Part shown: positions 1 to 56,790 of the stretch, piece by piece
How the letters are laid out: every line of letters starts with the position of its first letter
How positions within the stretch are numbered: the stretch's first letter is position 1
Source: Octopus vulgaris
Lineage: Eukaryota
Assembly (NCBI GenBank): GCA_951406725.2
Contig: OX597822.1
Location: 26,040,001-26,104,000 of the forward strand
Direction: 5' to 3'
Length of the DNA: 64,000 nt
The notes under the pieces: generated by a model
Told to the model about the DNA's origin: nothing
The model's database searches: none
The model's input: only the letters and a program-made list of their open reading frames with translations
Made by a program: the position numbers and the translations under genes

Positions 1-941
1 CAAAGTGTTCTTTTCATTTGAAAAAAAACACAGTCACTGGTTCTACTGTTGGCCCTCTGATTGATGAAAATGGTACTCTCCAAGACAATGCCAAAACCAT
101 GGGAGGGATATTGCAGAAACAATATTGCTCTGTTTTCAGCAATCCTGATATGACTGATCTGGGCTGTATCAGTGATGGTACTCCCCAATACACTTTATCG
201 GACATAACCTATGGCGCTCCTGATGTCTTAGCAGCAATAAAAGAAATGAAGCATAATTCAGCAGTAGGTCCCGATAGGTTCCCTGCTTGTGTCTTGAAGA
301 TGTGTCAACACCAACTTGCACCCCCTCTAGCCAATCTGTGGCGGAACTCACTGGATGCTGGATATATACCAGAAGACCTTCTATCCCAGTCTGTTGTCCC
401 AGTTTTCAAAAAAGGAAACAAATAGCTTGCCGTGAATTACCGTCCAATCTCACTCACCTCTCACATCATTAAGGTATTTGAGAGAGTGCTGAGATCGCGT
501 ATAACTCACTTCCTTGAGAGTCATAATATGATGTGGAAAATATTCCATCAGCACTGTCCGAATGATGTTGGCATCACCTTCAAAATACATCCAAGGCTTG
601 GACCACGTGCCATCCGTCCACAACAAAAATTTAAATCGCATAACATAACGACAATACGGCACAATTATTTCACCTCAATTGGACCCGCTCTCTTCAACAT
701 TACACCAGGACACGTCAAAACAGAAACTGACCACACAAAATTCAAGAAGTCTTTGGACAAATTCCTTCAAACAGTCCTTGACAAACCACCCACACCCGGA
801 TATGTCACCGCAAACAATAACTCTCTGCTCGAATGGGCCTTGGTGCCCAAATCCTGAATTGAAAGACGTCGCCAGGTGGTGCTGTTAAGTCAGGCATGGC
901 CTGGGCCAATACTGGCCAAAACCTTTCTAATTTATTCTAAG
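1..941 (+). mobile_element. CR1-group LINE (family A), 3' part with internal deletion
   Basis: ORFs 18-425 and 432-857 carry [19 protein letters not shown]-proximal motifs joined at ~527 directly to the C-terminal domain. The 3' end GGTGGTGCT..GCATGGCC plus a TCTAA(G)TT(TA) tail runs into (TA)n. Confidence 0.9.
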
Positions 942-1236
942 TTATATATATATATATATATATATATATATATATATATATATATCTCGGAGCACTAGGC
1001 CACTTGGTGTAGAATAGATATACTATTAAATTAGTATCTAATTCTCTCACCCTTATTAATTAATTATAATTATGCTGCATTTATTTCTAAATGCTGTATT
1101 TGTTTTCCGTGAAAATTTGGCGCGCTGTTAGTTGGGGCATTTGAATTATAACGTCGGATGTAATCAATTGAACCACACGCGTATTTATCGTTATGGTAAA
1201 ATCTGGCGTGTGATTGAGTGGATTTCATCCAGATAG

Positions 1237-1318
1237 TTTTGGCTGAAGAGCTACAAGTGGATTTTATTGTAAGTAAAATTACATTTAATTCATTAATAGC
1301 GAAACAATTGTCCCAAAA
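1237..1318 (+). ncRNA. Type I hammerhead ribozyme (probable PLE pLTR remnant, 986-1470)
   Basis: ttttgg-CTGAAGA-gcta..tagc-GAAAC-aatt-GTC-ccaaaa; stems I, II and III all pair. Confidence 0.85.
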
Positions 1319-1554
1319 TAATCTGTATTTTGTTATTTTTTATTTGCCCTGTCCGTGTGAGCTAACAATCGTACTGACTTTCATGGGAAACATGTATTTT
1401 TGTGGTTGAAACATTTTGGATTAACTGGTGCTAGAGTGAGCCATATAGTGACCACTCTCTTATATTTATTTTATATATATATATATATATATATATATAT
1501 ATATATATGTGTGTGTGTGTATGTAGGTATATATGTATATATATATGTGTGTGT

Positions 1555-1772
1555 GTTTGTGTCTGTGTTTGTCCTACCACCACCACCACCATAGCTTGAG
1601 AACCGATGTTAGTGTGTTTGCGTCCCTGTAACTTAGCTGTTCAGCGAAACACTGATAGAATAAGCACCAGGCTTGCAGGGAATAAGTCCAGGGGTCAATT
1701 TATTCGACTAAAGGGTGGTGCTCCAGCATAACCACTGTCAAATACCTGAAACATGTAAAAGAATAAAAGAAT
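1555..1772 (+). mobile_element. SINE 3' half (same family as 62858-63184)
   Basis: Shares gtaacttagc..gatagaataag..ggtgctccagcat..tgaaaca and an (AAAAGAAT) tail with the other copies. Confidence 0.8.
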
Positions 1773-1944
1773 ACGAGAAAAATATTCCGTACCACTAAAC
1801 CAAGAAGGTTCTCTGAATATGTACGATGTATTTTAAAGCTAAATAGTAATTCTGTTTACGTTTGCGTAACTGAGATATTTCGGTTGGATTATATAGTTAT
1901 CGGCTTTGCACTTCTTTCTATATTCTGTAACTGTCACAATATAC

Positions 1945-53400: not shown

Positions 53401-53439
53401 AGAACTAACAAAGTGTTTTAACAATACGATAACAAAAGC

Positions 53440-54750
53440 AGTTCAACAAAAATTCAACAATTACAATAAACAGAACTTTATCGCAAAAACCAGCCAAACT
53501 CGGAACAGTGAGAGGGCACGAATTGGTTTTAATTGACAACAAGGGTTGCACACAGGAGGGACATACAAAGGGTCGGAGTGATTCGTTCCGTTTTTAATGA
53601 ACATTAAAAATTTCAAAAATCTGAGAAAAAATGATGACAACGAATGATTATGATGAAGTGGTGGACGTGGCTGACCCCACAGACCACGTTCTACTACTGA
53701 ACCATTAAATAATACTTTTGTCCTCTCTTTAGAAGCTACATACATTCTCAACAAGTATGCCACTTTCATCCATCTTTTCTCGTATATACTTAGTCGTAGG
53801 CGACTCCTCTCCAACCTTATTTTCCTTTTCAGTTGGAAACAAACAGTTTACCAACCACCGGCTGGAGATAAAGTCGCCTGTCACTACTACTTTCATGCGA
53901 GATATCCATACGACCTCTTCCACAATTGCTACTACAGTGAGAAAACAGAACCTTCCCTTCCCCTTTCAGAGAGGACGGTGCAACAATTTTATAATTGACT
54001 CGGAGCACAGCTGTACTCCTCCCAAATGTGACAACATAAACCCACAACTCTGATAGTTTCGGACACTGCACAATAGCGTGCAGAACAGTCTCACTGCTCT
54101 GCCTGCATCTTGGGCAAGTGGGCTGGCACGAAGAGCCATGCCTTGCGAGTTAATCTTGAACTGATAAGGTTCCTCGGTAACATTGCCAAGCCAGTGATCT
54201 TTGGAAGTTATCCAAAAGCCACATCCCGAATGTCCTTCGGAAAAAACCCGCAAGCTGACTATCGTCGAAGCCAAGGGTTTCCCCCAGGCCATCGTCATAC
54301 TTGGCCTCTACTAACCCTCTGTAGAATGACGAAATGGAAATCTCGCCGACCGGCATTAGCCATCCGGGAGAGACGTGCGAGAGCCTGCAGATATTCGACC
54401 TTCCACGCTCCCAACTACGCTTGATCCAAGGCTCTGATTCAATGAAACTAGTGAATCGGAGAAGTATCAGCTTGACGAACAGAGACGACACCCGCTCACC
54501 ATCCAGGTAGAGCCAAAAATGACTCAGCCTCTGTGCATCAACAGCCATGGTATCCCTAGCCCACCCTTTAGCTGGTGTTGGCAGCAGATAAAGCGCCTTA
54601 CAAGCGGTCCTCTGCCTTTCCCCAAAAAGCGAAAAAGCATCGTTCCAACTTGCTGGCCACGGGGCAAGGTACGACGGTTAGGTGGTAAGTGATCACAGAT
54701 GCGATAAACACACTTGCGAGCTCTGCCTTCCCTTTCAGGGATAACCACCG
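53440..54750 (-). mobile_element. L1/Tx1-like ORF2 C-terminal fragment and 3' UTR
   Basis: GGLGIP motif and CPRC..ETVLHAIVQCP zinc motif across frames. Confidence 0.7.
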
Positions 54751-55214
54751 CTCAGACTAGGCCTGGGTTAGGTGATAAAATCCATATAATCTCAATATCA
54801 TGTGTGAAACAAATAATCTTTTACAGTGCGACGCTTCTTTTTTAGTTCAGTATATAAGAATAGTTTATAGATTAGAGACAAGTAGTCTATATATAGGACA
54901 CACTTTGCATTACTCAAGAGATTTGAACTTGAGCAGATAAAGGAGTAATTACAAGGACAAGCAAGTTAGGCAAGTCGACATACAAAAAATATTGTTGTTG
55001 TTTGTTCCTTCACGAGCCATGCCTACCTCATAAGGGACGGTTTCCGGTTTCCTTAACGTAGAGGTTCCCCACCTGGACGGGACGCTTGTCCGTCACAGGT
55101 GAGCTGCTAGATGCAGGAGGAAAGATGCAGAGTGAGAGAACGTATATATATATATATATATATATATATATATATATATATATATATATATATATATAAA
55201 ATATAAATATATAT

Positions 55215-56408
55215 TCAACCAAAACCGTGGAAAAGTTCTACACTGGATTAAGTATTTCCTGGCTAATAGAACACATGTTGTAGTTGATGGAGTCCACTCA
55301 AGCCCAGCAAAACTCACCAGCGGTGTCCCCCAGGGGACTGTCTTGGGCCCGCTACTCTTCATAATTTAAATAAACGACCTTTCCAGTGTCGTACATTACT
55401 GCAAAATGAAAATATTTGCTGATGACACTAAGCTCCAGCAAGTCGTCAATGAAGAAGCAGACCGAACTCAACTCCAGTCTGATCTATATGCTGTGAGTCA
55501 ATGGGCAGACAGAAACAAAATGCAACTGAACGAGGGAAAATTTGAGCTGATGCATTTTGAAAGAAATTCCTCACTAAAACAGCCATACTCTCTTCCTTCA
55601 GGGGAACCGCTCACAGCCTCTAACAATATCATACACCTGGGTGTAATTGTTGATGACGATCTCAGTTGGAGTGCACACATCAACAATAAGGTCGATATAG
55701 CTCGTAGGATGAGTTCCTGGATCTTAAGAACTTTCCGGTTCAGAGAACAAGGTGTCATCATACCACTTTTCTCCTCCTTTGTACGGCCACACCTCGAATA
55801 CTGCTGCCCACTGTGGTCTCCCCATACAAGACAAAACATCTCGAGGATTGAATCACCCCAGAGGGCACTCACTAAACGAATTGAAGGCGTGGCTGCTCTC
55901 GATTATTGGGATCGCCTTAAAGCCTTGAAACTCTACTCTCTCCAGCGTCACCGTGAGCAGTATATCATTTGTACGATGTGGAGAATATACCGCCAACTTT
56001 GCCCAAACGACCTGAACATTAGCTTCAAGGTTCATCCAAGACTGGGACCACGGGCCATACGTCCCCTGCCCAATTCAATATCACAGCATACATGTACACT
56101 GCAACATAATTTCTTTTCCTCAACAGGCCCTGCCCTATTTAACATTGTCCCGAAAGTGATCAAAGAGGAAAAGGATCCCATCAACTTTAAACGGAGTCTG
56201 GATAGATTCCTTCAAGGAATACCAGATAAGCCACCCATGATTGAATACAACTCACCCAACAAAAACTCACTACTTGAATGGACCATAAACAAAACTTGAC
56301 TTAAACAGGATTCAAATAATCCTATCAAGTGGTGCTATTAAGTTAGACATGGCCTGGACCAATCTGTGATCGAAACATATCTAAGTTTATCTAAGTTTAT
56401 CTAAGTTT
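55215..56408 (+). mobile_element. CR1-group LINE (family A-related), 5'-truncated
   Basis: SGVPQG and FADDTK ORF 55406-56299; 3' GGTGCT..CATGGCC plus (TCTAAGTTTA)3 tail; (TA)n on both sides. Confidence 0.93.
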
Positions 56409-56790
56409 ATATATATATATATATATATATATATATATATATATATATATATATATATATATATATATATATATATATAATAAATAGGGTTCAGCAACGA
56501 TTTGCTTCACCACATACCGAAGTTTAGAAATAGCAGTCAAAAAATCTTCGCTATTCCTTCTACTTTAAAAGGGGCTTACTTAAGCTTACCATGAAATGGT
56601 CTTTTCATGCCGAATTCTGCTTGGTGAAATTACTGATTACTTTTTAATTAATTAATTTTACCCTTTGTTATTAAATATATATATACATATATATATATAT
56701 ATATATATATATATATATATATATATATATATATATATATATATATAACCTAATTTATTAATATAATAACCTAATATATATATATATAAT

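Follow-up and report, generated by a model that had tools for sequence, protein, structure and literature searches.

The question raised by this locus is whether certain retrotransposons of the octopus seek out a single simple repeat as their place of insertion. In a 64,000-nucleotide stretch of the 2.8-Gb Octopus vulgaris genome (GCA_951406725.2, contig OX597822.1, positions 26,040,001 to 26,104,000; referred to here as the window), seven copies of long interspersed nuclear elements (LINEs) that look CR1-like lie against (TA)n, and it had been predicted from the sequence that CR1-group LINEs of three families target this microsatellite. Sequence identities divide the copies into five families rather than three, named A, A', B, C and D: A' is 86% identical to A, D approximately 68% identical to A, and B and C are 69% identical to each other. 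Sampling across the genome shows that the family-specific association of these LINEs with TA is real and that it is a strong preference (50-85% by family), not a strict specificity. The elements' own proteins probably aim insertion at pre-existing TA repeats, by target-primed reverse transcription.

Copies of A, B and C were taken as the first pattern matches by coordinate on contig C1, the flanks playing no part in selection, while copies of D, of an older C subfamily, of a control LINE family (E) and of an RTE family were the 30 matches that ranked highest against a single copy of each. A junction was scored as positive where a TA run of at least 8 nt fell within 20 nt upstream and 4 nt inside the element (a 24-nt scoring window). 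Duplicates were left out (L151, L168, L174, L365 and L273; in the RTE and register tally also L244, L263 and L265), L149 is absent from the tally as its 5' end lies beyond the flank, young C was defined as at least 95% identical to the reference copy, and background was measured in 20 evenly spaced 10-kb stretches (200 kb). With duplicates and unresolved ends removed, TA was found at the 5' ends of 23/38 A (38 rows), 23/27 B (30 rows), 16/19 young C (20 rows) and 9/18 D copies (29 rows). The pooled figure is 71/102, rising to 78/102 with a 45-nt window, against background values of 4.5% and 6.7%. The truncation points of the sampled copies are nearly all distinct, and 37 of the 39 full-length C 5' starts examined (from 47 exact matches genome-wide) are flanked by TA. 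At the 3' end TA was found in 33/36 A, 19/21 B and 15/20 young C copies (the D tally was not used because of duplicated flanks), and 1066 of the 1779 forward-strand C-type tails genome-wide (60%) have TATATATA at most 30 nt away, a count that may include short non-autonomous elements sharing the tail; the reverse-strand figure, which overlapping matches inflate, was left out. The register of tail to target is constant, the target starting TATAT in 14/21 B and 20/29 A copies.

Between the body of the element and the array stands a tail, which is (AATC)n in C, (GTAAAAGA)n in B and made of TCTAAGT-type units in A and D. That TA might itself be the tail was rejected: these tails are not TA, and in two of 20 long C loci (L040, L048) the tail gives way to a bare ATAT and then to unique sequence. 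The two outcomes named beforehand as fatal to the original prediction, 5' flanks without TA enrichment genome-wide and TA as part of the tail, are thus the opposite of what was found.

Family E is a CR1-like LINE found in L194, with a tetranucleotide tail. It is younger than the TA families (99.7% identity; the median pairwise identities of ten copies each are 97.7% for A, 99.0% for B, 98.3% for C and 98.7% for D), and it scores 1/26 at 5' ends (Fisher p = 4e-10 against 71/102) and 2/28 at 3' ends. Its lack of enrichment argues against a genome-wide sink, against selection and against assembly joins. It bears directly on the suggestion that insertion is random, with harmless survival in TA arrays, or that the junctions arose where long repeats were joined during assembly, for which it may be said that TA runs make up 3.3% of the background sample and that assembly gaps lie beside elements at several loci. 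Family E has been subject to the same selection and the same assembly, however, and at L116 contigs X2 and X4 of two independent short-read runs bridge the junction from flank through TA to element (of the L116 runs, two contain the insertion and two stop at the TA tract). This explanation is very improbable.

The RTE family (L243-L272; L405-L407), with a (CAT)n-type tail, was dropped as a negative control in favour of E because it is itself microsatellite-associated: 19/27 of its 5' ends lie in (TATG)n or (TA)n, mostly TATG. (TATG)3 was found at 12/27 and TA at 7/27 of these ends, and (TATG)3 at only 1/102 in the TA families (p = 8e-9). This is a second microsatellite-seeking APE LINE of the octopus genome, which extends the microsatellite habit past CR1-like elements; as the RTE prefers (TATG)n and the TA families (TA)n, each family has its own target.

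The state of the target before insertion was addressed using empty paralogous sites, tested for 54 insertions among the fetched loci and giving a usable comparison in three (L199, L154 and L367). The C copy of L199 and the A copy of L154 each split the internal TA tract of an abundant short interspersed nuclear element (SINE, described below), and D in L367 splits a host repeat of which the empty copies in L087 and L281 carry TA16 and TA41. The presence of TA in empty host-repeat copies, together with the non-TA tails, indicates that the LINEs insert into pre-existing (TA)n. Several insertions (e.g. L195, L220 and L178) have an identical interrupted array motif on either side, and some targets comprise only 4-5 TA units, or 8-10 nt (L385, L386).

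In the window, every preserved end had been described as abutting pure (TA)n. The junction positions were right to 1-2 nt in all seven copies, while 'pure' was too strong at 11035, 11342, 14876 and 55215, as interruptions occur there in the final 10-25 nt. TA lies on both flanks of the copies at 7610-9664, 11035-11153, 11342-14431, 14876-18176 and 55215-56407. The features are as follows, arrays being given without strand.

1-941, plus strand: 3' portion of a family A LINE with a deletion inside it near 530; the tail consists of TTCTAAGT-type units
943-985: (TA)n, 3' junction of A
4392-7328, minus strand: family A' LINE, 86% identical to A, 5'-truncated within ORF1, APE and first half of reverse transcriptase (RT) kept, 3' part lost
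7329-7363: (TA)n, 5' junction of A'
7550-7609: (TA)n, 3' junction of the 7610 copy
7610-9664, minus strand: variant of family C (93% identity with the copy at 14876), truncated at the 5' end and with an (AAAATC)n tail
9665-11034: 1.4-kb (TA)n array separating two C copies
11035-11153, minus strand: 119-bp 3' fragment of a family C element, with an (AATC)n tail
11154-11341: (TA)n separating the C fragment from B
11342-14431, plus strand: LINE of family B, its 5' truncation falling at the end of ORF1, with a (GTAAAAGA)n tail
11395-14349, plus strand: intact APE-RT open reading frame (ORF) 2 of B, 984 aa, Pfam RVT_1 and Exo_endo_phos
14432-14452: (TA)n, 3' junction of B
14760-14875: interrupted (TA)n, 3' junction of C
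14876-18176, minus strand: family C LINE, 5'-truncated in ORF1, 99% identical to other copies, tail (AATC)n
14965-18084, minus strand: ORF2 of C, an intact APE-RT frame of 1039 aa (stop to stop), Pfam RVT_1 and Exo_endo_phos
18177-20114: 1.9-kb (TA)n array, 5' junction of C
55143-55214: (TA)n, 5' junction of D, final 16 nt imperfect
55215-56407, plus strand: family D LINE, 5'-truncated, tail (TATCTAAGTT)n
56408-56479: (TA)n, 3' junction of D

The claim that two copies keep intact APE-RT ORFs was borne out, the frames of B and C both being open with the expected Pfam matches; both copies are 5'-truncated inside ORF1. Short non-coding repeats with TA at either side occupy 7364-7550 and 14453-14759, the former being found again beside TA in L180 and L382. 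They are possibly Penelope-derived, and an Rfam scan of window positions 900-15000 gave nothing above threshold. At 2262-3285 there is a decayed LINE remnant with (TAA)n-type repeats at both ends, which from its motifs we take to be Dong/R4-like. Further fragments at 27934-29986, 34022-34795, 50240-51300 and 52641-54677 are presumably Penelope-like RT fragments and one Tx1-like remnant, again judged by motifs; among them a Pfam RT match was obtained for 28535-29983 only.

Full-length elements measure approximately 5.6 kb in C, 5.4 kb in B and 4.8 kb in A, and exact-pattern counts of their 3' regions in the genome are 3997 (C-type), 467 (B) and 875 (A). The closest named relative of ORF2 is from Argonauta hians (58% identity), and an Octopus vulgaris protein matches the family B ORF1 at 98% identity. 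A full-length C in L031 carries a 5' untranslated region (UTR) of AT-rich tandem repeats, and C variants in L189 and L198 have a different 5' UTR similar to that of B, which suggests 5' UTR exchange. On contig C1 at approximately 70-74 Mb (L127-L144, L204-L217) a dense cluster of B, C and A lies inside long TA arrays with assembly gaps. An abundant SINE has the 3' end and (GTAAAAGA)n tail of B (84% over 90 nt; window positions 62855-63205 against 14362-14451), so that B is likely to be its partner LINE; the internal TA tract of this SINE serves as a target itself.

In the proposed mechanism the APE would nick inside a TA repeat on either strand. Since a TA repeat reads alike on both strands, either-strand nicking would be expected, and this fits the finding that copies of opposite orientation share an array. 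Synthesis of cDNA would be primed by pairing, over 1-3 bases, between the nicked end and the incomplete unit that closes the RNA tail; the 5' end of the element, whether complete or truncated, would then be connected to the half of the array lying upstream. Any target duplication would be concealed in the repeat, matches within arrays being ambiguous, and repeated hits would build clusters such as that at 7.3-20.1 kb. Targeting may be achieved through the nicking preference of the APE, through tethering by a Myb/SANT-like domain in ORF1, or both. At L126, L164, L110 and L400 the element's own 5' sequence is briefly duplicated at the junction, at times with TA between the copies, as expected for re-priming.

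The proteins offer two candidate determinants. ORF2 matches PF14529 and PF03372 (endonuclease) and PF00078 (RT), and an alignment shows the APE catalytic motifs to be intact in A, B and C. The PTR-xLD hairpin loop shapes target choice in other APEs; in the TA families it has 4-5 residues, the same as in generic relatives, and in E it is longer. A sequence search with the APE alone for solved endonuclease structures found none. The ORF1 of A, A', B and C (L206:3211-3465, L003:829-1083, L042:8194-8448, L092:2235-2489) opens with a three-helix Myb/SANT-like domain, followed by CCCH fingers (weak matches). All four members match Pfam Myb_DNA-bind_4 (best E 1.5e-6, B falling under the curated cut-off), the predicted fold has a pLDDT of 87, and a fold search gave weak rows only, the top three being SANT, MYB and GT-1 (best E 0.47; E 0.5-0.7). 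No family was matched by the ORF1 of E. In a metagenome relative (L242), a locus that stops short of the element ends, CCCH fingers are visible and the start of ORF1 is cut off. From its sequence the ORF1 domain may be regarded as a second candidate targeting determinant beside the APE. C variants below 95% identity likewise carry it, and the domain alone is therefore no guarantee of a strong preference.

Several observations weigh against the view that the elements direct their own insertion into pre-existing TA. The strict rule is missed by 31/102 5' ends (24 with the 45-nt window), and a single TA-rich cluster on C1 supplies many of the B copies, which are not independent. No same-locus empty allele was seen. 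The generic-looking catalytic residues and the short loop, compared with relatives, give no sequence sign of an adapted APE. An older C subfamily with ATAAA-type tails, whose RT protein is 97% identical, was pooled with C copies below 95%; TA lies at 13/37 of these 5' ends, which is below young C (p = 6e-4) and also below A of similar age (p = 0.04). The SINE that shares the 3' end of B scores just 3/13 5' ends at TA. In addition, the junction arrays are much longer than background, summed tracts reaching at least 100 nt at 50/80 junctions (before duplicate removal), with no pure 100-nt TA run in the 200 kb of background and a length-weighted median there of 65; and the longer tract is more often on the 3' side in A (21 vs 13) and D (10 vs 4).

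A preference for long arrays and later expansion are indistinguishable as sources of such arrays, which also fit a process in which host-made breaks at fragile long TA arrays take up LINE cDNAs without sequence-directed nicking. A break-capture route of this kind is proposed for the TA-flanked viral sequences of plants (florendoviruses) in the accessible part of PMC4241990, and in the octopus a second clade, the RTE, and small non-coding repeats likewise lie in TA. Passive capture should not sort targets by family, however, and is disfavoured by the fact that E, the youngest control, avoids TA while the RTE favours TATG. Intact APEs, complete tails in constant register and targets as short as 8-10 nt are also difficult to reconcile with it, and we consider break capture unlikely.

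The 3' bias might instead mean that the elements land at a minimal TA or ATA site and that slippage of the RT or subsequent expansion then produces TA, for the most part 3' of the element. In A the 3' ends are in TA more often than the 5' ends (33/36 vs 23/38), and in several copies the tract is short at the 5' end but long at the 3' end. There are, however, long 5' tracts at many truncation points, compound motifs that match across the insertion and TA in the empty paralogous sites, and neither B nor young C has a 3' bias. Such a process may lengthen arrays but cannot account for the 5' enrichment, and as the source of the TA it is improbable, more so than break capture.

Members of the CR1 clade are not known to have RNase H or a C-terminal CCHC, and their 3' tail consists of short tandem repeats, not poly(A). 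The octopus families share with them an ORF2 with an N-terminal APE bearing catalytic motifs and an RT, in which neither RNase H nor a C-terminal CCHC zinc knuckle was matched in Pfam at E <= 0.001 (either full ORF2), a short 3' UTR, a tandem-repeat tail without poly(A), mostly 5'-truncated copies and a partner SINE with a common 3' end. They differ in their strong target preference and perhaps in the Myb/SANT-like start and CCCH fingers of ORF1. A quick RT tree was made from 111 rows (8 homologues were dropped for short coverage), comprising unnamed homologues and family E, with a single long-branched RTE serving as outgroup. In this tree B/C and A/A'/D form two separate sublineages, each with an Argonauta sister, both within a 79-row clade with a support of 99 and set apart from E and from PHD-fused relatives. 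Membership of CR1 is judged from architecture and motifs, and the families are accordingly termed CR1-like. Of the (TA)n-specific CR1-group lineage originally envisaged, the TA preference stands and holds outside the window too; it is not strict (from 9/18 in D to 16/19 in young C), the microsatellite habit is not confined to CR1-like elements, since the RTE family also lies in TA or TATG arrays, and the tree has two sublineages rather than one.

Of the known microsatellite-associated LINEs, Waldo and Mino belong to the R1 clade and Kibi and Koshi to Tx1. All four are, like the octopus families, APE-RT elements without long terminal repeats, with a single kind of microsatellite at the 3' ends and at the truncated 5' ends, namely ACAY for Waldo, AC for Mino, TC for Kibi and TTC for Koshi (PMC3812793, accessible part). 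The hallmark of 3' and variously truncated 5' ends in one repeat type is present in the octopus TA families, and that of the repeat already standing at the empty site is seen through paralogous host repeats. The near-exclusive target use of these elements is lacking, the octopus LINEs, which look CR1-like, using (TA)n at 50-85% by family and at 60% of forward-strand C-type 3' ends. Dong, of the R4 clade, also has a microsatellite target, TAA, and the Dong-like remnant in the window sits in (TAA)n; the repeat is a different one, and R4 elements use a restriction-like endonuclease (PMC4640811, accessible part). TA repeats are targets of the miniature inverted-repeat transposable element (MITE) Micron of rice and of MuTAnT of Medicago, and they flank florendoviruses, but these are plant DNA transposons or passively captured viral DNA with no retrotransposon nicking endonuclease.

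The accessible part of PMC3812793 gives ACAY, AC, TC, TTC and TAA as LINE microsatellite targets, with TA only for the rice MITE, and calls the targeting mechanism at microsatellites not well understood. According to that of PMC4640811, most target-specific families fall in the early-branched, Tx1 and R1 groups, and among APE-type LINEs mainly in R1 and Tx1. No TA-targeting CR1 appears in the accessible parts of PMC10294476, PMC4120745, PMC3124438 and PMC5786205. Neither Myb nor CCCH is mentioned in the main text of PMC4120745, a survey of ORF1 types, and PMC10294476 mentions an unclassified I-superfamily subclade in Octopus sinensis, which may overlap with these families. Thirteen recently active CR1 families are reported in O. 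vulgaris in the available text of PMC13282606, where the word 'target' is absent from the main text. Our literature search found no report of a TA-targeting CR1-group LINE, although Repbase entries and subscription papers outside the search may already note one. What has not been found described is TA as the target of LINEs in a CR1-like group; microsatellite-targeting LINEs as such are already known.

A bolder proposal is that two deep sublineages of octopod CR1-like LINEs find (TA)n through the Myb/SANT-like domain with which ORF1 begins and not through an altered endonuclease and that, alongside the RTE that seeks (TATG)n and a Dong-like family that seeks (TAA)n, they partition microsatellites as niches, kilobase TA arrays being partly built in this way. 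We put this forward as a tentative and rather doubtful possibility. The octopus genome nevertheless holds a natural series, with young strong-TA families, a close older weak subfamily, a non-targeting control, an RTE with another repeat and intact ORF2s in B and C, so that domain swaps could be used to test how target preference arose. The finding is also relevant to the presence in octopus genomes of very long TA arrays, and of gaps beside LINE clusters.

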